Positions 5,283 through 29,973 of a DNA stretch of 30,222 nt are shown one piece after another. This DNA is from a virus (Duplodnaviria; Heunggongvirae; Uroviricota; Caudoviricetes), in the IMG/VR virus record IMGVR_UViG_2565956730_000004. One strand, 5' to 3'. The number at the start of each line of letters is the position of its first letter. Position 1 is the first letter of the stretch. The notes under the pieces were generated by a model, which saw nothing but the letters and a program-made list of their open reading frames with translations, made no database searches and was not told the DNA's origin. The position numbers and the translations under genes were made by a program.

Positions 5283-6035
5283 ATGAACCTTGAAGCCTTA
5301 CCAAAATATTACTCCCCAAAATCTCCAAAATTGAGCGATGACGCACCGGCGACAGGCTCGGGTGGTTTAACGATTACGGATGTGATGGCTGCGCAGGGGA
5401 TGGTGCAGTCGAAAGCACCGCTTGGATTTGCCTTATTCCTGGCAAAAGTTGGTGTTCAGGATCCTCAGTTTGCGATTGAAGGTCTGCTCAATTACGCGAT
5501 GGCACTGGATAACCCGACATTGAACAAATTGAGTGAAGAAACCCGGTTACAGATCATCCCTTACCTTGTGAATTTTGCCTTTGCTGATTATTCCAGGTCT
5601 GCGGCAAGTAAGGCTCGCTGTGAGCATTGTGCTGGTACTGGATTTCATAATGTATTGCGCGAAGTGGTGAAACACTCCAGAAGCGGGGAATCTGTTATCA
5701 AGGAAGAGTGGGTGAAGGAACTATGTCAGCATTGCCATGGTAAGGGAGAAGTCAGCACAGCGTGCAGAGGGTGTAAGGGTAAAGGTATTGTCCTGGATGA
5801 AAAAAGAACCCGGCTTCATGGTGTGCCTGTTTATAAGATTTGTGGGCGTTGCAATGGCAACCGGTTTAGCCGTTTACCAACCACACTGGCGCGGCATCAT
5901 GTCCAGAAACTGGTACCGGACCTGACGGATTATCAGTGGTACAAAGGATATGCAGACGTTATTAATAAACTGGTTACAAAGTGCTGGCAGGAAGAAGCGT
6001 ATGCTGAATCGCAATTGAGAAAAGTGACAAGATAG
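5283..6035 (+). CDS. Q-like late-gene antitermination protein
   Basis: RBS GGAGAA upstream of ATG 5283 (the longer ORF from 5241 lacks an RBS). Cys-rich zinc-binding motifs (CEHCAGTG, CQHCHGKG, CRGCKGKG, CGRCNG). Lies immediately upstream of a promoter/terminator pair and the lysis genes. Confidence 0.75.
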   Translation: MNLEALPKYYSPKSPKLSDDAPATGSGGLTITDVMAAQGMVQSKAPLGFALFLAKVGVQDPQFAIEGLLNYAMALDNPTLNKLSEETRLQIIPYLVNFAFADYSRSAASKARCEHCAGTGFHNVLREVVKHSRSGESVIKEEWVKELCQHCHGKGEVSTACRGCKGKGIVLDEKRTRLHGVPVYKICGRCNGNRFSRLPTTLARHHVQKLVPDLTDYQWYKGYADVINKLVTKCWQEEAYAESQLRKVTR

Positions 6036-6066
6036 ATAATTTTCGCCGAAGATGTCGACGTGATAC

Positions 6067-6095
6067 TTGCATTTTTCAAAAAATATGGATAAGAT
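6067..6095 (+). promoter_or_regulatory. Putative late promoter PR' (sigma70-like: -35 TTGCAT, 17-bp spacer, -10 TAAGAT)
   Basis: TTGCAT at 6067-6072 and TAAGAT at 6090-6095 with a 17-nt spacer, about 30 bp after the Q stop; position matches lambda PR'/qut. Confidence 0.4.
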
Positions 6096-6138
6096 TTTCT
6101 CAACGATGGGCCTTGTATGTCTACCGTTGGTAAATGTC

Positions 6139-6166
6139 AAAAACCCGCCACCGAGCGGTTTTTTAT
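6139..6166 (+). terminator. Putative tR'-like terminator (short GC stem between an A-tract and a T-tract)
   Basis: AAAAACCCGCCACCGAGCGGTTTTTTATT: a 4-bp GC stem (CCGC/GCGG) extendable by A:T pairs, followed by a U-run. Weak on its own; its position downstream of the putative PR' supports the call. Confidence 0.4.
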
Positions 6167-6323
6167 TGATGTCAATTGTGTTTTTAAGGCTCTCCTTCCT
6201 TAAAGTATGTTGTACAAAAAACTGGCAGCCAGCTACGCTCATTTTGAAAAAGTGACACCCTTCAATGTTTCTTTTGAATGGAATTGCTACCCATAAATCT
6301 CTATCAAAAACAGGAGAGCATAT

Positions 6324-6566
6324 ATGGTGGAGCGTTGTTCTGTTTGTGAGCAGTCATTAAGTTATTCACGAGAAGTTGAACAAGATGGCGTTGAATATAA
6401 ATCTTGCCCAAAATGTTCTGCTGATGCCGGAGTGCACGTTTTTTATAAAACAATAGACTTTGGTTATAGGGATATGGGAGACGGAAGGCATATCGTTCAG
6501 TCATGGTGTCCGGCTTGTCGTTCTGGTGAAAAACCGTCTATACCACCAGCATTTAAATGTTGTTAA
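6324..6566 (+). CDS. Small Cys-rich zinc-ribbon-like protein (80 aa) in the Q-to-holin slot
   Basis: Good RBS AGGAGAG 5 nt upstream of ATG 6324. Four CxxC-type pairs (CSVC, CPKC, CPAC, C-terminal CC). Visibly more AT-rich than flanking phage genes. Followed by a strong terminator. Confidence 0.55.
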   Translation: MVERCSVCEQSLSYSREVEQDGVEYKSCPKCSADAGVHVFYKTIDFGYRDMGDGRHIVQSWCPACRSGEKPSIPPAFKCC

Positions 6567-6584
6567 CTCAATGAATTATAAAAA

Positions 6585-6612
6585 GAGGCTGCCTGTGGGC
6601 GGCCTTTTTTGT
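6585..6612 (+). terminator. Rho-independent terminator after the zinc-ribbon ORF
   Basis: AGGCUGCC / GGCGGCCU stem (8 bp including one G-U), tetraloop UGUG, then UUUUUU. Confidence 0.7.
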
Positions 6613-6697
6613 GCACTACGCAACTTTTGCGACTCAGCGCTATAACCAGCTTCTTTCCCTTCACTCGTTGCACTTCCGATAACCGGAGGTGGGAATT

Positions 6698-7039
6698 ATG
6701 AAAATGCATAACGATCCTCATTCCTGGTCTGACTTACTTGAATTGTTACAGAGCTGGTGGCGTGGAGACACACCGCTGGGCGCAGTAATTATGTCGATCG
6801 TTATGGCTGGCTTGCGCATTGCCTATTTTGGCGGTGGTGGTGGTTGGAAGCGAAAAACGCTCGAGATTTTGCTCTGCGGCGCTCTGACGCTGACTTTTGC
6901 ATCCGCTCTTGAGTATGTCGGATGGCCTAAATCGCTTTCTGTTGCCATTGGTGGTGGCGTTGGGTTGATCGGTGTCGATGCTATTCGTGGGGCTGCAATG
7001 AGAGTAATCGGTAACAAGTTTGGTGGCTCTAAGGAGTAA
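6698..7039 (+). CDS. S: Holin, lambda S-like, with Met-Lys-Met dual-start motif
   Basis: RBS GGAGGTGGG upstream; begins MKMH.. like lambda S (MKMPEKHDLL..); hydrophobic helices; Gly-rich C-terminus (..AIRGAAMRVIGNKFGGSKE). Confidence 0.8.
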   Translation: MKMHNDPHSWSDLLELLQSWWRGDTPLGAVIMSIVMAGLRIAYFGGGGGWKRKTLEILLCGALTLTFASALEYVGWPKSLSVAIGGGVGLIGVDAIRGAAMRVIGNKFGGSKE

Positions 7040-19592: not shown

Positions 19593-21417
19593 ATTTGAGC
19601 TTAAGGCGTTGATCACCGGTGTCGACAGGCTTTCTCCCGCGCTGTCGAAAATGCAAAAGAAAATCCGGGGATTTAAACGCCAGGCGGAAGAAGCGTCACA
19701 GGGTGGGCTGGCGCTTGGTGGCGGACTGGCTGCGGGTCTGACGCTTTCCCTGAAATCTTATGCCGATCAGGAAAACGCCGCCACCGGGCTGAAAGTTGCC
19801 ATGATGGATGCGAACGGTGAGGTCGGAAAGCGCTTTCAGGACATCAATAAACTGGCTATTGGTCTGGGTAACCAGCTACCCGGTACAACGGCTGATTTCC
19901 AGAACATGATGCAGATGCTGGTGCGTCAGGGGATCCCGGCAGAAAACATTCTTGGCGGTGTGGGTAAAGCGACAGCTTATCTTGCGGTACAACTGAAAAA
20001 AACACCGGAAGCGGCTGCTGAGTTTGCTGCAAAGATGCAGGATGCTACCGGAACGGCGTCAGAAGACATGATGGGGCTGTTCGACACTATCCAGAAGGCG
20101 TTTTATCTGGGCGTTGACGATACCAACATGTTGTCCTTCTTCACTAAAACCAGTTCTGTTCTGAAGATGGTGAACAAGGACGGTCTTCAGGCTGCACAGA
20201 GCCTTGCCCCCATCAGCGTCATGATGGATCAGATGGGGATGAACGGGGAGTCGGCAGGTAATGCCCTGCGAAAAGTTATCCAGTCCGGATTAAGCGTTAA
20301 GAAAATCAGGGACGTCAATAAAGTCATGGCCCGCCAGAAACTCGGGGTACAGCTCGATTTTACTGACGGCAAAGGAAGTTTTGGCGGTCTTGATAACATG
20401 TTCAGGCAACTGGCAAAGCTGCGAAAACTGACCGACGTTAAGCGAACAGGTGTACTTAAGGCAATATTTGGTGATGATGCCGAAACCCTTCAGGTGGTTA
20501 ATGCACTAATCGATAAAGGAAAGGATGGCTACGATCAGATCCAGCAGAAGATGAATAAACAGGCCAGCCTGAATAAACGTGTTCAGGCCCAGCTTGGTAC
20601 GCTGTCCAACCTGTGGGAGGCAATGACGGGGACCGCAACTAACGGCCTTGCGGCTATTGGCGGCGCATTTTCTGGTGACGCCAAAAATATCACGCAATGG
20701 CTGGGGGAGTTAGGGGAAAAATTCACGAAGTTTGCGGATGAAAATCCCCGGGTTATTCGCGGCGTCGTCGGGCTTGCTGCCGGTCTTGCGATTCTGAAAC
20801 TGGGATTGATGGGCGTTGGCGGTGCCATCAGTATTGTCAGCAGGATCATGTCGATGACGCCGATTGGCATGATTGCGACGGCGATTGCTCTGGCTGCGGG
20901 ATTAATTATCACTAACTGGGATGTTGTCGGACCTTATTTCAAGAAGCTCTGGGAAACCATTGGTCCTTATTTTGAGGCAGGTTGGGAACTTCTGAAGAAG
21001 GTTTTTGCCTGGTCGCCGCTGGGGATGGTGATCAATAACTGGGGACCGGTTGTTAAGTGGTTTCAGGATATGTGGGACAAGCTGAAGCCAATTATTGAGT
21101 GGTTTACCGACAGTTCCGGTGACACGGTCGATGCCATTAACTCTGCGCAGTGGGGCGCGGGTGCTTATGATGCTTATGGGACGGGAATACCGGCGCGGGG
21201 ATACACACCTTATCCGGCGGTGGATCCGGCTCAGTCAAACAACGCCTCCGATGCCACAGGCTCGAATCCCTTCATGATTAACAAAGCTTCTGTGCCAAAA
21301 GTTGATGGTGAGATCAAGGTATCTTTTGTGAATTCGCCTCCGGGTATGCGGGTTATGGAAACGCGATCCAGCGGTTTTGATGTCAGCCATGATGTTGGCT
21401 ATACGCGGTTCAGGTAG
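19585..21417 (+). CDS. Tail tape measure protein
   Basis: 610 aa; Ala/Gly-rich alpha-helical N-terminal half and hydrophobic Gly-rich segments in the C-terminal half; RBS AGGAGA; canonical position. Confidence 0.85.
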   Translation: MAEFELKALITGVDRLSPALSKMQKKIRGFKRQAEEASQGGLALGGGLAAGLTLSLKSYADQENAATGLKVAMMDANGEVGKRFQDINKLAIGLGNQLPGTTADFQNMMQMLVRQGIPAENILGGVGKATAYLAVQLKKTPEAAAEFAAKMQDATGTASEDMMGLFDTIQKAFYLGVDDTNMLSFFTKTSSVLKMVNKDGLQAAQSLAPISVMMDQMGMNGESAGNALRKVIQSGLSVKKIRDVNKVMARQKLGVQLDFTDGKGSFGGLDNMFRQLAKLRKLTDVKRTGVLKAIFGDDAETLQVVNALIDKGKDGYDQIQQKMNKQASLNKRVQAQLGTLSNLWEAMTGTATNGLAAIGGAFSGDAKNITQWLGELGEKFTKFADENPRVIRGVVGLAAGLAILKLGLMGVGGAISIVSRIMSMTPIGMIATAIALAAGLIITNWDVVGPYFKKLWETIGPYFEAGWELLKKVFAWSPLGMVINNWGPVVKWFQDMWDKLKPIIEWFTDSSGDTVDAINSAQWGAGAYDAYGTGIPARGYTPYPAVDPAQSNNASDATGSNPFMINKASVPKVDGEIKVSFVNSPPGMRVMETRSSGFDVSHDVGYTRFR

Positions 21418-21516
21418 TGTACAAAATGATTAATGTGTTTTTGTCTGGCATAATTTGGGTTTTCAGCTTTAAGTAGTTAATATAATCATTCCTTACAAAT
21501 GATTGAAGGGATGATT

Positions 21517-22011
21517 ATGCGTATCTTTGTTTTTTTTATATCTGCACTTTTATCTTTTAACTTGGCTGCGGAAGAGTGTAAGTTCAGCTTTAATGAGTCA
21601 GAATTAATCTCTTCTATAGGTATTGCACCAGTTAAGCAAGAGATAATAAAGGATGAAGGAATAACTAAGCGGCAATATGAATTCAGAAGAGAATTATCTT
21701 CTGAAGAAATGCTTAGTGATGACGCTGATGAAAAATATGAGCCGCAGTTTTATATATCTGTTTATAATCCATCATGCCCACAAAAGGTTATTGTTTGGTT
21801 TTTCAAAGACAATAAAAACACAATGGATTTAAGTAATGAGGTCCTTGCTGGTAGAGCGTTCAAGTATTTAACTGGTGTTAATGAAAGTATTTTTGAAAAT
21901 AAAATGAAAAAGTTTTTAAAGGTACAGTCATTTGAATCTTTTGATGAAAGGACAGATTCTAAATTTATAAAGAGTGGTGATATTTATTCCATTGATGTTC
22001 AACTCAGATAG
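21517..22011 (+). CDS. AT-rich inserted gene: secreted/periplasmic protein of unknown function (165 aa) with N-terminal signal peptide
   Basis: RBS AAGGGA about 6 nt upstream of ATG 21517 (ORF opens at 21499). N-terminus MRIFVFFISALLSFNLAAEE is signal-peptide-like; two Cys in the mature part; Lys/Glu/Asn-rich AT-biased codons unlike neighbours; flanked by an AT-rich upstream region and a downstream terminator. Confidence 0.65.
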   Translation: MRIFVFFISALLSFNLAAEECKFSFNESELISSIGIAPVKQEIIKDEGITKRQYEFRRELSSEEMLSDDADEKYEPQFYISVYNPSCPQKVIVWFFKDNKNTMDLSNEVLAGRAFKYLTGVNESIFENKMKKFLKVQSFESFDERTDSKFIKSGDIYSIDVQLR

Positions 22012-22101: not shown

Positions 22102-23430
22102 ATGACGTGGAAAGACAGGCTTCAGGATGCGTCATTTCGCGGCGTACCGTTTAAGGTTGAAGAAGAAAGTGCGGGAACCGGTCGCCGTGTGGAAACACAC
22201 GAATATCCGAACCGCGACAAGCCCTATACCGAAGATCTGGGAAAAGTCACTTTCCGCCCGTCCATCACAGCTTATGTGGTGGGAGATGACTGCTTTGACC
22301 AGCGCGATCGCCTGATTGAAGCGCTGAATAAACCCGGTCCCGGCACGCTTGTCCACCCGACATATGGTGAGCTGAAAGTCTGTGTTGACGGGGAAGTTCG
22401 GGTCAGCACATCGAAAAGTGAAGGGCGTATTGTCCGCTTTGACCTGAAGTTTGTCGAAGCAGGAGAACTCTCTTACCCCACATCAGGTGCGGCGACGGCG
22501 CAGACGCTGATGTCATCCTGTTCTGCACTGGATGACTGCATCAGTGACAGCTTCAGCGGTTTCAGTATCGATGGTGTGGCGGATTTCGTGCAGAACGACG
22601 TTATCGGTAATGCCAGCATAATGCTGGGGTATGTTTCTGATGCGATGAAAGTGGTGGATTCTGCCGTATCGGATGCCGCCAGGCTGTTGCAGGGGGATAT
22701 CTCGGTACTTCTGCCGCCGCCATCGTCAGGCAAAAATTTCGTTGAGCAGGTGCAGAAAATGTGGCGTACCGGGAAACGCCTTTATGGTAACGCCAGCGAC
22801 CTGGTCACCATGATCAAAACGCTTTCCGGTGTCAGCCTCGGCAGCGATCTGCAACCGCGCGGCGTCTGGAAAACGGACAGTAAAACCACCGCCACGGCTA
22901 CGCAGCAGCGTAACGTGGTTGCCAGCACCCTTCGTACGACCGCAATCAGCGAAGCGGCGTATGCCGTCACCCGATTGCCTGCGCCAACAACTTCCGCGGT
23001 GATGCAGAATTCCGCAGTGGGGCAGGCAACAACACCCGCGCAGAGCACTGGCTGGCCTGCCGTCACGCATCCGGCACTGAACAATGCACCGGCGGTGAAA
23101 AACACGGTTGACCTGCCGACGTGGGAAGAACTGACTGACATTCGCGACACACTGAATACGGCAATTGATAAGGAGTTGTCCCGTACAACCAGTGATGCGC
23201 TGTTTCTGGCGCTGCGCCGGGTGAAAGCAGATCTGAATGCGGATATCAACACGCGCCTTGAACAGTCTGCACGGATCATTCAGCGCACACCGGATGAGGT
23301 TTTACCCGCGCTGGTGCTGGCGGCGACCTGGTTTGATAACGCGGCGCGTGACGCGGACATTATCCGGCGTAATGCCATTACGCATCCCGGCTTTGTGCCG
23401 GTGATCCCTCTGAAGGTGCCAGTGCAATGA
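22102..23430 (+). CDS. DNA circularization protein (Mu gpN-like)
   Basis: 442 aa; RBS GGAG; first gene after the tape measure region, as in Mu/SfV-type tail modules. Confidence 0.8.
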   Translation: MTWKDRLQDASFRGVPFKVEEESAGTGRRVETHEYPNRDKPYTEDLGKVTFRPSITAYVVGDDCFDQRDRLIEALNKPGPGTLVHPTYGELKVCVDGEVRVSTSKSEGRIVRFDLKFVEAGELSYPTSGAATAQTLMSSCSALDDCISDSFSGFSIDGVADFVQNDVIGNASIMLGYVSDAMKVVDSAVSDAARLLQGDISVLLPPPSSGKNFVEQVQKMWRTGKRLYGNASDLVTMIKTLSGVSLGSDLQPRGVWKTDSKTTATATQQRNVVASTLRTTAISEAAYAVTRLPAPTTSAVMQNSAVGQATTPAQSTGWPAVTHPALNNAPAVKNTVDLPTWEELTDIRDTLNTAIDKELSRTTSDALFLALRRVKADLNADINTRLEQSARIIQRTPDEVLPALVLAATWFDNAARDADIIRRNAITHPGFVPVIPLKVPVQ

Positions 23431-24506
23431 ACGACAATGTCACGCTACGGGTAAATGGCCGGGAGTGGAATGGCTGGACATCGGTGCGCATCGGTGCCGG
23501 TATTGAACGGCTGGCGCGGGATTTCAGTGTGGAGATCACTCGCCAGTGGCCAGGATATGAGGGTATCACCACGCTTCAGCCGCGCATTAAAAACGGTTCA
23601 AAAGTGGAAGTGCTGATTGGTGATGAGCTGGTGATCACCGGCTGGGTGGAGGCGACTCCCGTTCGTTACGATGCCCGTTCGGTCAGCACCGGTATTGCCG
23701 GACGTAGTCTGACGGCTGACCTGATTGACTGTGCAGCCGAACCGACACAGTTTAACGGACGCTCGCTGGTGCAGATTGCGCAGGCGCTTGCTGCGCCTTT
23801 CGGCATTGAGGTGGTGAACAGCGGTGCGCCATCGGGTGTTATTCCTGATGTTCAGCCTGATCACGGTGAAACGGTGATTGAGGTAATCAACAAAATACTC
23901 GGTCAGCAGCAGGCGCTGGCTTACGACGACCCGCACGGCAGGCTGGTGATTGGCGGTATTGGCTCAACGCGGGCACATACCGCGCTGGTACTCGGGGAAA
24001 ACATCCTTTCCTGCGATACGGAGAAGAGTATCCGGGAGCGGTTTTCTGTTTACCAGGTGGCGGGGCAGCGTGCCGGAAACGACGATGATTTCGGTGAGGC
24101 CACCACCACCGCGCTGCGGGCCCGCACAGAGGACGCATTTATTGCCCGTTACCGTCCGATGTATATCAGGCAGACAGGGCAGGCTACGGGGGCAGGCTGT
24201 ATTGCGCGTGCTGACTTTGAAGCCCGACAACGGGCGGCGCGGACGGATGAAACCACCTATGTGGTGCAGGGCTGGCGACAGGGTAACGGTACGCTGTGGC
24301 AGCCCAACCAGCGGGTGATTGTCTTCGATCCGGTCTGTGGTTTCGACAATACCGAACTGCTTGTCTCGGAAGTCACGTTTACTCAGGACCAGAACGGCAC
24401 CCTGACGGAAATCCGTGTCGGCCCACCTGATGCTTATCTGCCTGAACCCGAAGCCCCCGGCGCGCGGAAAAAGAAAAAAGCCAGAGTACAGGAGGACCCG
24501 TTCTGA
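23427..24506 (+). CDS. Baseplate hub / tail protein (Mu gpP-like)
   Basis: 359 aa; ATGA-coupled; canonical position. Confidence 0.8.
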   Translation: MNDNVTLRVNGREWNGWTSVRIGAGIERLARDFSVEITRQWPGYEGITTLQPRIKNGSKVEVLIGDELVITGWVEATPVRYDARSVSTGIAGRSLTADLIDCAAEPTQFNGRSLVQIAQALAAPFGIEVVNSGAPSGVIPDVQPDHGETVIEVINKILGQQQALAYDDPHGRLVIGGIGSTRAHTALVLGENILSCDTEKSIRERFSVYQVAGQRAGNDDDFGEATTTALRARTEDAFIARYRPMYIRQTGQATGAGCIARADFEARQRAARTDETTYVVQGWRQGNGTLWQPNQRVIVFDPVCGFDNTELLVSEVTFTQDQNGTLTEIRVGPPDAYLPEPEAPGARKKKKARVQEDPF

Positions 24507-25054
24507 TGAGGACGATTGAAGCCATGCAGCGACAACTCCTCGGCCTGATTGGGCGGGCCGTGGTGAAAAGCATCAGTGCCGCCACGAAATGTCAGACCGT
24601 GGATGTGTCCCTGATTGCCGGTGAACCCAAAGCCGGGGTTGAACATCTTGAACCCTACGGTTTTACCGCAAGGGCAAACAGCGGTGCGGAAGCGGTGGTG
24701 TTGTTTCCGGATGGTGACCGTTCTCATGCGGTGGTTGTTACGGTGTCGGACCGGCGCTACCGCCTGAAAGGGTTGCAGACGGGTGAGGTGGCTGTCTATG
24801 ACGATCAGGGGCAGTCCGTGACGCTGACCCGGGAGGGGATCGTGGTGGACGGTGCAGGTAAAACGATCACGTTTCGCAATTCACCTAAAGCACGTTTTGA
24901 AATGGACCTGGAAGTGACAGGACAGGTGAAAGACCTGTGCGACTCCAGCGGCACCACCATGTCAGCGATGCGGCTTGCCTATAACGGGCATCGTCACAGA
25001 GAGAACGGTCAGGGCAGTAACACCGACAAACCGGATAAAGCGATGGAGGCATGA
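24506..25054 (+). CDS. Baseplate spike / assembly protein V (Mu gp45-like)
   Basis: 182 aa; RBS AGGAGG; between the hub and gp46-like genes. Confidence 0.8.
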   Translation: MRTIEAMQRQLLGLIGRAVVKSISAATKCQTVDVSLIAGEPKAGVEHLEPYGFTARANSGAEAVVLFPDGDRSHAVVVTVSDRRYRLKGLQTGEVAVYDDQGQSVTLTREGIVVDGAGKTITFRNSPKARFEMDLEVTGQVKDLCDSSGTTMSAMRLAYNGHRHRENGQGSNTDKPDKAMEA

Positions 25055-25479
25055 TGGAACTGTGGCTGACGGTGAACGGTAAACGCACCTGCGCCAGCGC
25101 ACCGCTGGATCCGCTGACCCGCGCCGTGGTGATTTCCCTGTTTACCTGGCGGCGGGCGGAGCCTGATGACAACGCCGACGTCCCGATGGGATGGTGGGGG
25201 GATACCTGGCCTGCGGTACAGAATGACCGTTACGGCTCCCGGCTGTGGCTGCTTCAGCGCAGCAAACTGACCAATCAGCTGGTGCAGACGGTAAGGGGGT
25301 ATATCCGCGAATGCCTGCAATGGATGATTGATGACGGCGTGGTGTCCCGTATTGATCTGGATATCCGCCGCACCGGGATTAATGAACTGGGTAACAGTAT
25401 CACTCTCTGGCGTCGTGACGGACCGGTAATGATTTCTTTTGATGATCTGTGGAGTGCGATAACGCATGGCGGACAGTGA
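25051..25479 (+). CDS. Baseplate protein (Mu gp46-like)
   Basis: 142 aa; RBS GGAGG; translationally coupled. Confidence 0.75.
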   Translation: MMELWLTVNGKRTCASAPLDPLTRAVVISLFTWRRAEPDDNADVPMGWWGDTWPAVQNDRYGSRLWLLQRSKLTNQLVQTVRGYIRECLQWMIDDGVVSRIDLDIRRTGINELGNSITLWRRDGPVMISFDDLWSAITHGGQ

Positions 25480-26524
25480 ATTTCAGCGCCCGACGCTGGC
25501 AGAAAATATCAGTATGCTCCGTAACGATTTATTCGCCAGGCTGGACGTCAGCGACACGCTCCGGCGCATGGATGAAGACGTGCGGGCAAAGGTGTATGCG
25601 GCGGCGCTGCATACGGTTTATGGGTACATCGATTATCTGGCAATGAATATGCTGCCTGACCTGTGCGATGAGTCCTGGCTGGCACGACATGCTGCGATGA
25701 AACGGTGTCCGCGCAAGGGGGCCACGGCTGCCAGCGGGTATATGCGCTGGGAAGGTGTCAGCGATGGCCTGAAGGTGACTGCCGGGAGCGTGATTCAGCG
25801 CGATGACCTGGTTCAGTACACGGCAACTGCCGATGCAACCAGCTCCGGTGGTGTCCTGCGTGCGCCGATCACTTGCTCAACTACAGGCGCGGTCGGTAAC
25901 GCTGACGACGGTACGGCATTAATCCTGGTCACGCCGGTGAATGGTCTGCCGTCTTCCGGTGTTGCAGATACCCTGACTGGCGGATTCGATACTGAAGATC
26001 TGGAAACGTGGCGCGCCCGCGTCATTGAGCGGTATTACTGGACGCCGCAGGGCGGGGCTGACGGGGACTATGTCGTCTGGGCTAAAGAAGTGCCCGGCAT
26101 TACCCGCGCATGGACATACCGTCACTGGATGGGAACGGGAACTGTCGGTGTGATGATTGCCAGCAGTGACCTGATTAATCCCATTCCGGAAGAATCAACG
26201 GAAACGGCGGCAAGACAACATATCGAGCCACTGGCCCCGGTGGCAGGCTCTGATTTATATGTATTCAGGCCGGTGGCGCATAAAGTGGATTTTCATATCC
26301 GCGTGACGCCGGACACACCGGAAATACGGGCTGCCATCACCGCCGAGTTGCGTTCGTTCCTGCTGCGTGATGGTTATCCGCAGGGAGAACTGAAGGTGTC
26401 GCGTATCAGTGAAGCGATTTCCGGTGCGAACGGGGAATACAGCCATCAGTTGCTTGCACCGGCAGACAATATCTCCATTGCAAAAAATGAACTGGCGGTA
26501 CTGGGGACGATTTCATGGACGTGA
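25466..26524 (+). CDS. Baseplate J-like protein (Mu gp47-like)
   Basis: 352 aa; position and size match baseplate J family. Confidence 0.8.
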
Positions 26525-27099
26525 CAAACGATGATTACATCCGTCTGTTGTCGGCACTGTTGCCCCCCGGTCCGGCGTGGTCATCCAGCGATCCAGCGAT
26601 TGCCGGTGCGGCACCGTCATTAACCCGCGTTCATCAGCGTGCGGATGCCCTGATGCGGGAGCTGGATCCGCGCACCACCACTGAACTGATAAACCGCTGG
26701 GAGCGTCTGTGCGGCCTGCCGGATGAATGTATTCCGGCGGGAACGCAGACCCTTCGCCAGCGTCAGCAACGGCTGGATGCGAAGGTTAATCTGGCGGGCG
26801 GCATCAATGAGGATTTTTACCTTGCACAGCTTGCTGCCCTGGGCAGACCAGACGCCACCATCACGCGATACGACAAAAGCACGTTCACCTGCTCATCGGC
26901 CTGTACTGACGCAGTGAATGCGACGGAATGGCGGTATTACTGGCAGGTCAACATGCCAGCCGCCACCAACACCACCTGGATGACATGTGGCGATCCCTGT
27001 GATTCCGCACTGCGTATCTGGGGCGACACCGTTGTCGAGTGCGTGCTTAACAAACTCTGCCCTTCGCATACCTACGTAATTTTCAAATATCCGGAGTAA
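26515..27099 (+). CDS. Baseplate/tail protein (Mu gp48-like, YmfQ/DUF2313-like)
   Basis: 194 aa; Cys-containing C-terminus; directly upstream of the tail fibre gene. Confidence 0.7.
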
Positions 27100-27102
27100 T
27101 CC

Positions 27103-29478
27103 ATGCATCGTATAGACACGAAAACCGCGCAGAAGGATAAGTTCGGCGCGGGTAAGAACGGTTTTACCCGTGGTAACCCCCAGACCGGCACGCCTGCCAC
27201 CGATCTGGATGATGACTACTTTGACATGTTGCAGGAAGAACTTTGCAGCGTGGTGGAGGCCTCCGGTGCCAGTCTGGAGAAGGCGCGGCACGACCAGCTG
27301 CTTACCGCGCTTCGTGCGCTGCTGTTAAGCCGCAAAAATCCGTTTGGCGATATCAAATCGGATGGCACGGTAGAACGCGCTCTTGAAAATCTGGGGTTAC
27401 AGGATGTAAAAGCTGGTTCATTGAACAATCTGTACACTAACCATTCCCGTAGTGTCTTAATGGAATTGCCGTTATTATTCCCAGACTACGATACGGTGCT
27501 GGCTGCTCAGTCTGGTGCGGAATATATGTATCCACAGGGATTTGTGGTGACAGGAGAAAAAATCTATCTGAGTTATACCGTTGAGCCAAAGCAGACACGG
27601 AACGTTATAGTTCAGTACACAACATCCGGCGAATATGAGGGATATTATTATGTCGATAATGGAGGTCGTGGCGTTGTCAGCGAAGGCCTTGTGGTGACAA
27701 CGGATTACGGTGGATTACGTTTGTTCATGTCAGGAGAAAATGGATTACTGAAACAGTTTTCGCTTGATGGGGCAATTTCTGGTTCAGTATTGCCGTTAAT
27801 TGATGAACATGATGTCGGTGTTTACAACCAGTTCAGCTATCGTAAAAACCGCTGGGTGGTTGAACAGTCAGCGCCGGAAGTGGGAGGCCTGATCACCCGC
27901 ACAGTATTTGCGGTGTATGATTTTCAGTTTCGTCGGACAGGGACATTCACATTACCGTTGCATGATTCCGGATATATCACGGAAAGCACAGACAGCTATG
28001 CAAGACGCTTCACAAAACGTCAGGGAATTGCTGTGGGAGACGATTATATTGCCTGTTCTTATGGTGGCTATTTTAATACCGGGGCATCAGCCGGATTTAA
28101 CCAGTTTCAGGGGGTTAAGGTCTTTTCTCCGGATGGAGTAAAGCAGCAGGAATCCATTCTTCATCCCCAAAAAATGATAGATGTGCTTACCAGGCAGGGT
28201 TTTACACCTTCGCGCATTGAGAACGAAGGAATTTGTATTTCTGACGACGGCGGCAGTATATATTCGCTTTATATCTTTCTGGAGCGTGGGTTACCACAGG
28301 CTTATCAGAAAGGAATTGTTCTGATGAAAGAGTTCAGTACTGGCAGAGATGCTATTGATTTTCGTCAGGCAGCCTGGTTGTACACGGGGTTTGATGTGTC
28401 TCATGCCAGTATTGGAACATTTCCCCGTAGTGCCCAGGGGTTGGTAAACCCGGTGTTGGGGACGGTATTCACATCCCTGTCTGAAATTCTGGCATATATG
28501 CGTTCTGTGAGTCAGAAATGGTTTTGTCTGCATACAACCACGACACCGATTAAAGATCTGAGTGGAAATGACATTCCTGCTGACAATTATGTGTTCATCA
28601 AGAATGCTAATAACCAGACATTCTATATAACGCAGGAGTCAGCTGAAGGTGGAATAAAATATAAAGCTGTCACTACAGACAGCGGAGAATATGGTTTTCA
28701 GCGACAAAGAGAGGCAATCTGGTCCAATGTTATCACCATCGCACAAAAGAGCGATGGTGAGGATCAGTTTAATCGTATTATCGCTGCCTCGAAAAGTGGT
28801 TCAGGTAAAAATCAGGATAAAATACTGGTAGTTGACCAACAGGCATCAGAGGGGAATAACACGCTGGTAATTGGCGGTGGTTCATCTGTGTTCAGGTCAG
28901 CGACAGTGATTGATTTTGCAACGAATCAGGATGCAAATGCCACAGGAGGAGAAAAGAGATGGCGCATAGATTCATCAGGAAATCTCCGCCCTTATACAGA
29001 TAATACGTATTCGATCGGTTATGCCTCATGGCGACCCGCACAGGTTTATTCAGCTACGGGAAGTATCAGTACATCAGACCGGACTCATAAACAGGACGAA
29101 ACAATTCTGTCGGATGCAGAAAAAAGGGTTGCCAGAAAGCTGCTCGGGTATATCTGTCGGTTCCGTTTCAGGGATGCAGTGTCCAGCAAAGGGAACGCAG
29201 CCAGATGGCATGTAGGAGTGATTGCTCAGGACGTACAGAAGGTCTTCTCTGAGGAAGGGCTGGACGCTTTTGATTACGGTATTTTGTGTCGTGATGAATA
29301 TCCGGCGGAATATGAAGTGGTTTACGGGACTCGTATGGAGCTTGGTCCTGACGGACTCCTTACAATGGAAGAATACGATACCGGAGAGCGCAAGCTGGTC
29401 AGGGAGGCTGGTGAAATAATGTCTGTAAGGAATGATGAGCTGCATTATTTCATGCTGGCATCGCTGTCTGGCCAGTGA
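27103..29478 (+). CDS. Tail fibre protein with conserved N-terminal anchor, AT-richer central region and C-terminal self-cleaving intramolecular chaperone (peptidase S74-like)
   Basis: 791 aa; RBS GGAG. Conserved-looking N-terminus ([40 protein letters not shown]..). C-terminus has an S-D-R-x-x-K motif ([10 protein letters not shown], Ser codon about 29074) followed by roughly 130 aa, matching endosialidase-chaperone-type autoproteolysis. Confidence 0.85.
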
Positions 29479-29488
29479 ATAATATTAA

Positions 29489-29515
29489 TGTAAGGAGCGA
29501 TATAAGCTCCTTACA
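29489..29515 (+). terminator. Perfect 10-bp hairpin just after the tail fibre stop; likely terminator for the late operon
   Basis: TGTAAGGAGC-GATATAA-GCTCCTTACA, followed by TCATGCATTTT. Confidence 0.5.
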
Positions 29516-29973
29516 TCATGCATTTTATGCTGCGATTATGCGTTCTCCTGTTGTTTGTTGCTGAGAGTGAAACACCGGAAACATACTGGTGGATTGAAAT
29601 GTTCTGTGTGGCAGCGTATGAATATGTCGTGGTAGGGTGGATAAAAAATGCCCGTGATGATCCGGGCAACATAGCAGTATGCATTTTTCTATTGTGAACT
29701 GATGCATTATACAAGTAATGCTGTTATTGAGGAAAGTTTAAAGAAGCGGCTCTTCTCCGCCTGTAAAGTTTGGTCATTATTGCTTTATATATAAGTTCCA
29801 CCAGTAGGCGATCATCTATGATGTTGGCATATCGACTTTGTATAAGAGGTTTCCGGTCGGAGATAAATGAAACCGTAGCACGTCGTATGCAAGAACGTGC
29901 CACGGCTGGCTGGCGAACTTTCGATAGTGCGAGTATTGAATGATTTCCAGCCGTTACCGATTTTACGTGTTAA

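Follow-up and report, generated by a model that had tools for sequence, protein, structure and literature searches.

The gene at 27103-29478 raises the question of whether one tail-fibre protein can be built from parts of different origin, and of what each part contributes. It lies in a 30,222-nt stretch of viral DNA (the window) that corresponds to an Escherichia coli prophage, found mostly in the ST131 lineage, which is integrated at dusA and has a contractile tail of the Mu type. Based on the evidence presented here, the gene very probably encodes the recombinant receptor-binding tail fibre of an SfV-like prophage, in which the lineage's own anchor has been joined to an imported cassette with a built-in self-cleaving chaperone. 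The features referred to in the text are the following:

27093..27096, + strand: GGAG ribosome-binding site, 6 nt ahead of the ATG (alignment and ORF list)
27103..29478, + strand: tail-fibre/tailspike gene, one intact ORF encoding a precursor of 791 aa and 87.6 kDa
27103..27393, + strand: putative N-terminal baseplate anchor of the SfV/Mu-like type, aa 1-97
27292..27398, + strand: linker shared by the SfV backbone and the cassette regarded as imported, aa 64-99
27292..29640, + strand: exchanged distal cassette (linker, head, stalk, chaperone, terminator), a single blastn HSP 97.3% identical to L005
27445..28332, + strand: five-bladed β-propeller head, aa ~115-410, predicted by the AF2 model and fold searches
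28333..28704, + strand: second globular α/β head domain, aa ~411-534, predicted with pLDDT ~80-87 (AF2) and containing the conserved D485 and N503
28705..29073, + strand: stalk, presumably a trimeric β-helix, aa 535-657, with matches to the T5 pb1 and endoNF stalks and a weak PF12219 match at aa 621-657
29074..29475, + strand: C-terminal intramolecular chaperone/Peptidase_S74, aa 658-791, 15.3 kDa, assigned by Pfam, PDB alignments and conservation
29486..29518, no strand assigned: bidirectional terminator-like hairpin (GTAAGGAGC ... GCTCCTTAC), 8 nt past the stop codon and within the exchanged cassette

Reading frame and mosaic structure

In the ORF list, the ATG at 27103 opens a single uninterrupted frame on the + strand that ends at 29478. 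The stop codon of the upstream gp48-like gene (27097-27099) directly follows the GGAG, and Baseplate_J and Phage_Mu_Gp48 are the Pfam families found immediately 5' of the fibre gene. RefSeq/PGAP annotates the identical sequence as a "stfP" N-terminal pseudogene fragment plus a 327-aa "tail fiber domain-containing protein" CDS, and no NCBIfam model matches the 791-aa protein. PGAP makes the same split in a second copy of the sequence, in Ecol_AZ146, and an IS element interrupts the fibre gene in some ST131 genomes, for which reason the prophage may be decaying. Both observations would fit a dead remnant, consisting of a pseudogene fragment and an independent 327-aa gene with junk between them, but this interpretation is scarcely credible: the frame is open throughout, the "unannotated" middle is modelled as a confidently folding propeller and has homologues down to 25% identity with invariant residues, the 327-aa CDS would begin at about aa 465, inside the second head domain, a full-length 791-aa homologue at NCBI (P0001) represents 365 member sequences, and the cassette is at least 99% identical across 58 complete genomes. 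The RefSeq split is wrong, and the error is repeated across dozens of complete genomes.

The beginning of the gene had been predicted to be a conserved tail-fibre anchor of about 100 aa, and the comparisons agree with this. Over nucleotides 1-287, the gene shares 96.5% identity with orf21, the tail-fibre gene of phage SfV, and nucleotides 1-287/296 are 93.6-94.8% identical to SfI, SfII, SfIV and three coliphages; beyond this segment no phage record matches in the nucleotide comparison. PHROG tail-fibre families match aa 1 to ~104 with E-values of about 1e-50 (phrog_1396, E 1.6e-50), and the same anchor carries more than 25 different distal parts. The synteny around the gene is identical to that of SfV, with the fibre directly after the gp47/gp48-like baseplate wedge genes, and both this position and the homology of the first ~100 aa are those of an SfV/Mu-like anchor. 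Altogether, the first ~97 aa are likely to be the lineage's own baseplate anchor; the AF2 monomer model places helices at aa 37-53, 62-76 and 90-96, with low pLDDT.

The limits of this backbone and of the foreign DNA can be located with precision. Over 4.3 kb (23103-27398) the window is 97.6% identical to SfV at the nucleotide level, after which homology is lost abruptly, with a breakpoint at 27371-27398 and the last shared position at 27398. Homology to a second, unrelated Mu-like prophage (L005) starts at 27292, reaches 99-100% identity over 27301-28400 and fades to nothing by ~29640, and the other tail genes of L005 have no nucleotide-level match to the prophage studied here. Since the SfV homology ends at 27398 while that to L005 starts at 27292, the 107-nt linker in between (27292-27398, aa 64-99) is the probable site of homologous recombination, through which the distal cassette 27292-29640 would have been imported. 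The distal part also follows anchors of at least five other types (P2-type, TSP1/gp66-type, P22 head-binding, T7 fibre N-domain and a second Mu-like anchor), and the identities of head, stalk and chaperone co-vary across the homologues with five other anchor types. These sequence comparisons portray the gene as a mosaic of the lineage's anchor and a receptor-binding cassette imported as one unit. The exchange of the receptor-binding region by recombination that had been proposed is thus upheld by the SfV breakpoint, the matching step in GC and the five other anchors; what does not hold is its restriction to the central region, as the swapped block also includes the chaperone and 162 nt of 3' flank.

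Base composition is consistent with this origin. GC and GC3 are 0.557 and 0.629 in aa 1-97, 0.449 and 0.411 in aa 98-657, and 0.498 and 0.500 in aa 658-791; the adjoining baseplate genes have a GC of 0.57-0.58 and the intergenic DNA 3' of the gene one of 0.414. Composition is not uniform along the gene: a single-change-point likelihood scan detected a step at 27334 (2-log-likelihood interval 27296-27408, log-likelihood ratio 21.6), and this change coincides with the SfV homology breakpoint. Of the AT-richer region originally delimited at ~27400-29000, the beginning is supported by this step (GC3 from 0.63 to 0.41) but not the end, as low GC persists, in slightly weaker form, through the chaperone into the intergenic DNA. 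Taken by itself, low GC says little about import, since the window has other stretches that are equally low (0.398 at 21001-22000 and 0.440 at 6001-7000). These patches in the same prophage, together with the slight decrease in GC at codon positions 1+2 (0.52 to 0.47), could be taken to mean that the drop reflects amino-acid or functional constraint in an old, vertically inherited and non-recombinant gene, yet the largest drop is at third positions, it falls where the SfV homology breaks off, and the distal block recurs at 97-100% identity in a prophage with no nucleotide-level match in its other tail genes, all of which render vertical inheritance extremely improbable.

Both the exchange of receptor-binding modules and intramolecular chaperones of the S74 type are well established in phage biology, and hence the main finding agrees with known principles and does not extend them. 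Its interest is a practical one and lies in a precisely delimited example of mosaicism, with a 107-nt shared linker and a cassette that brings its own chaperone and terminator and is present in both prophages of one ST131-type chromosome (Ecol_AZ146).

The C-terminal chaperone and the region downstream

The C-terminus belongs to the S74 chaperone family, as had been anticipated: Pfam PF13884 (Peptidase_S74) matches aa 658-720 over its whole length (profile 1-58 of 58; E 1.3e-9, 38.6 bits against a cut-off of 22). The S-D-R-x-x-K motif expected at about 29074 is exactly there, since codon 29074-29076 is TCA, encoding Ser658, and is followed by D-R-T-H-K. Ser658 aligns with the catalytic serine of T5 pb1 and of the endosialidase, which is replaced by Ala in 4uw8 and 3gw6, and its counterpart in phi29 is the first residue of the chaperone once released (3gud), while Lys663 aligns with the catalytic Lys located five residues after Ser (Ser911/Lys916 in endoNF; Ser1264/Lys1269 in T5 pb1). 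Counted along the HMMER alignment, D633, R644 and T657 correspond to Asp1239, Arg1250 and Thr1263 of T5, and the mature T5 chains 4uw7 and 5aq5 stop at the residue aligned to 657. D633, R644, T/S657, S658 and K663, which match the residue set of the T5 autocleavage mechanism (PMC4690869), are kept in 16 out of 16 S74-bearing homologues, and each residue of the catalytic constellation is conserved in T5 pb1, phi29 gp12 and endoNF. Judging from this conservation, Ser658 would be the nucleophile and Lys663 the base of a self-cleavage reaction at Thr657-Ser658.

The best PDB match by sequence is the L-shaped fibre of T5, pb1 (4uw7/4uw8/5aq5; E 1e-16), with which the protein shares, in the alignment, the Thr-Ser scissile bond, the Lys five residues after Ser and the Arg and Asp sensors. 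Both chaperones have about 133-134 aa, and the "coiled coil plus tentacle" described in T5 (PMC4690869) matches the AF2 monomer model of the chaperone, with helices at 671-717, a long β-hairpin at 736-767 and a terminal helix (pLDDT 70-89). The preceding stalk, which ends at Thr657 and includes the folding-sensor residues Asp633 and Arg644, has low pLDDT as a monomer. T5 pb1 differs in having a bullet-shaped polymannose-binding tip and no propeller, and homology to it is limited to ~aa 603-750. The coliphage K1F tailspike endoNF (PDB 3gw6, stalk end and chaperone) has the same order of parts, namely an N-terminal particle-binding region, a trimeric propeller head, a stalk and S74; in the alignment, the Ala that replaces Ser911 in the crystallised S911A construct is opposite Ser658, and a Lys is opposite Lys663. 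It differs in that the head is here five-bladed and unrelated by sequence to the endosialidase catalytic domain, and in that endoNF belongs to a podovirus tail whereas the anchor is here probably one for the baseplate of a Mu-type contractile tail.

Based on these similarities, a maturation pathway can be proposed. Three fibre chains would assemble, and the stalk of the trimer would fold from a nucleus provided by the C-terminal S74 chaperone. When the stalk has reached its correct fold, Arg644 from an adjacent chain, Asp633 and Thr657 would set up the site at which Ser658, activated by Lys663, cleaves the Thr657-Ser658 bond. The departure of the 15-kDa (15.3) chaperone would then leave a mature fibre of 72 kDa (72.3), whose three five-bladed propellers would bind a host surface glycan and may also process it.

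It had also been proposed that no separate tail-fibre assembly gene follows, and the downstream DNA bears this out. The ORFs in 29479-29973 are all of 67 aa or less and have no Pfam match, and neither a hidden assembly gene nor a Tfa remnant was found among them; tblastn of the SfV assembly protein orf22 against the whole window gave no match (best E 0.5). The second prophage with the cassette likewise lacks a tail-fibre assembly gene. The downstream assembly gene typical of Tfa-dependent fibres (Caudo_TAP PF02413; Mu gp50, P2 gpG, SfV orf22) is therefore missing here. In the SfV backbone, the assembly gene orf22 comes after the fibre gene, and orf21/orf22, as well as Mu gp49/gp50 and the P2 H/G type, represent systems composed of a fibre and a separate assembly protein. 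SfV shares with the prophage studied here the baseplate module and the first ~97 aa of the fibre; in SfV a distal part of just ~120 aa is followed by the Tfa gene, whereas here a 694-aa cassette with a built-in chaperone replaces both. Since the cassette brings its own folding aid, the assembly gene that the SfV backbone carries was probably lost together with the old distal part, in line with the BASEL paper, which describes a separate Mu-like Tfa as the alternative to a chaperone built into the fibre. The genes that follow the P2/HP1-type homologues P0002 and P0003 are backbone genes, and speak neither for nor against a general loss of Tfa.

The propeller head and its possible activity

The AF2 monomer models give the head the fold of a five-bladed propeller, and on this basis the distal part is a predicted propeller-headed, tailspike-like receptor-binding protein and not a thin fibre. 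No Pfam model covers the head, and no match was obtained in the PDB by sequence, either by phmmer with the head or by hmmsearch with a 23-sequence profile. Fold comparison was more informative: searches with the head model ranked five-bladed propellers first, the closest being staphylococcal receptor-binding proteins (RBPs), followed by YjiK (3qqz) and bacterial glutaminyl cyclases (3mbr, 3nok). The second head domain co-aligns with the tail fibre of Staphylococcus phage vB_SscM-1 (435 columns, TMq 0.67), and the fibre of a Twort-like Staphylococcus phage is a relative of the head detectable by sequence (22-25% identity).

The solved staphylococcal RBPs, phi11 Gp45 (5efv), 80alpha (6v8i), P68 (6iab) and NF5 gp17 (9m7x), have five-bladed propeller platforms, three around the trimer axis, and the fold comparison assigns the head to the type of platform present in phi11 Gp45. 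They differ in that they have no sequence-level match in the PDB to this head, end in "tower" domains, lack S74 and bind wall teichoic acid of Gram-positive hosts. Specifically, phi11 Gp45 has an iron-bound coiled-coil stem and two C-terminal towers, compared with a low-confidence helical N-terminus, one extra domain (aa 411-534), the stalk and S74 in the present protein.

The head family comprises ~286 clusters among 1.84 billion representative proteins. In a 64-member subset scanned with Pfam, S74 was present in only 13 of the 64 proteins with this head; therefore, it is the stalk that the chaperone serves, and the head does not require it. Five polar residues (E194, K305, Q307, E373 and E375) are retained by 90% or more of the family members compared (64-133, at 21-30% identity), which come from phages whose hosts include Bacillus, Psychrobacter, Aeromonas and E. 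coli; given that they stand at the start of each blade's innermost strand in the model, they are likely to surround the mouth of the central channel. The closest lytic relatives are the Kayfunavirus phages EcoIv41_Bia and EcoIv39_Milel (50% identity), followed by HC6, 6947, ZCEC08, U8 and EK8 (38%), for none of which were receptor data found in the literature. The comparison with unrelated fibres that had been suggested as a way to the receptor thus yielded a fold like that of staphylococcal RBPs, and the relatives gave no indication of the ligand. A paper on Dpo52, with which a phage name is shared, describes a P22-type β-helix tailspike irrelevant to this head, and the Kayfunavirus propeller RBP in a strain-level phage-host prediction paper is a true K1 endosialidase outside the head family.

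Whether the head only binds its ligand or also modifies it is the point on which interpretations diverge most. Some five-bladed propellers of this kind have a structural Ca2+ on the central axis, and the invariant acidic residues could form such a metal site in the central channel of a pure, lectin-like binding module without catalysis. This is an even bet: the closest folds are non-enzymatic staphylococcal RBPs, followed by YjiK and the glutaminyl cyclases, and the phi11 paper proposes that the Gp45 propeller binds GlcNAc of teichoic acid in a sugar-sized cavity, with no catalysis. On the other hand, the retention of five residues at this level of divergence and over such diverse hosts would be unusual for the reading of a host-specific ligand and fits a common chemistry, either catalysis or metal binding, and coliphage trimeric propeller tailspikes of the same architecture, such as endoNF, are enzymes. 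More speculatively, the head could be a five-bladed-propeller glycan depolymerase or esterase with an active site formed by E194, K305-Q307 and E373-E375, representing an uncharacterised enzyme family across phages of Gram-positive and Gram-negative hosts, with the ST131 version cutting the O25b O-antigen or the capsule. If so, it would be a candidate ST131-specific depolymerase moving between co-resident prophages and lytic Kayfunavirus phages. The family is uncurated and resembles staphylococcal RBPs, and its ligand on ST131 cells could be relevant to efforts to target the clone with phages or depolymerases.

An endosialidase (endo-N-acetylneuraminidase) degrading K1 polysialic acid, as suggested by the "endo-N-acetylneuraminidase" label of head homologues at 38% identity in several phage records, the endoNF-like order of anchor, propeller, stalk and chaperone and the weak PF12219 match (E 0.096), is most improbable, since the family of the six-bladed catalytic domain is absent by Pfam both in the protein (E ≤ 0.1) and in the 64 head-family members, the sequence matches to endoNF in the PDB are confined to the stalk end and chaperone and the head alone has none, and the fold searches, led by five-bladed propellers, did not return a sialidase propeller as the closest fold (K1E tailspike, Foldseek E 3.7e-4, TMq 0.21). 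The label most likely spread from the S74 domain, whose name is "Chaperone of endosialidase", and related phage genes have in this way come to be mislabelled as endosialidases.

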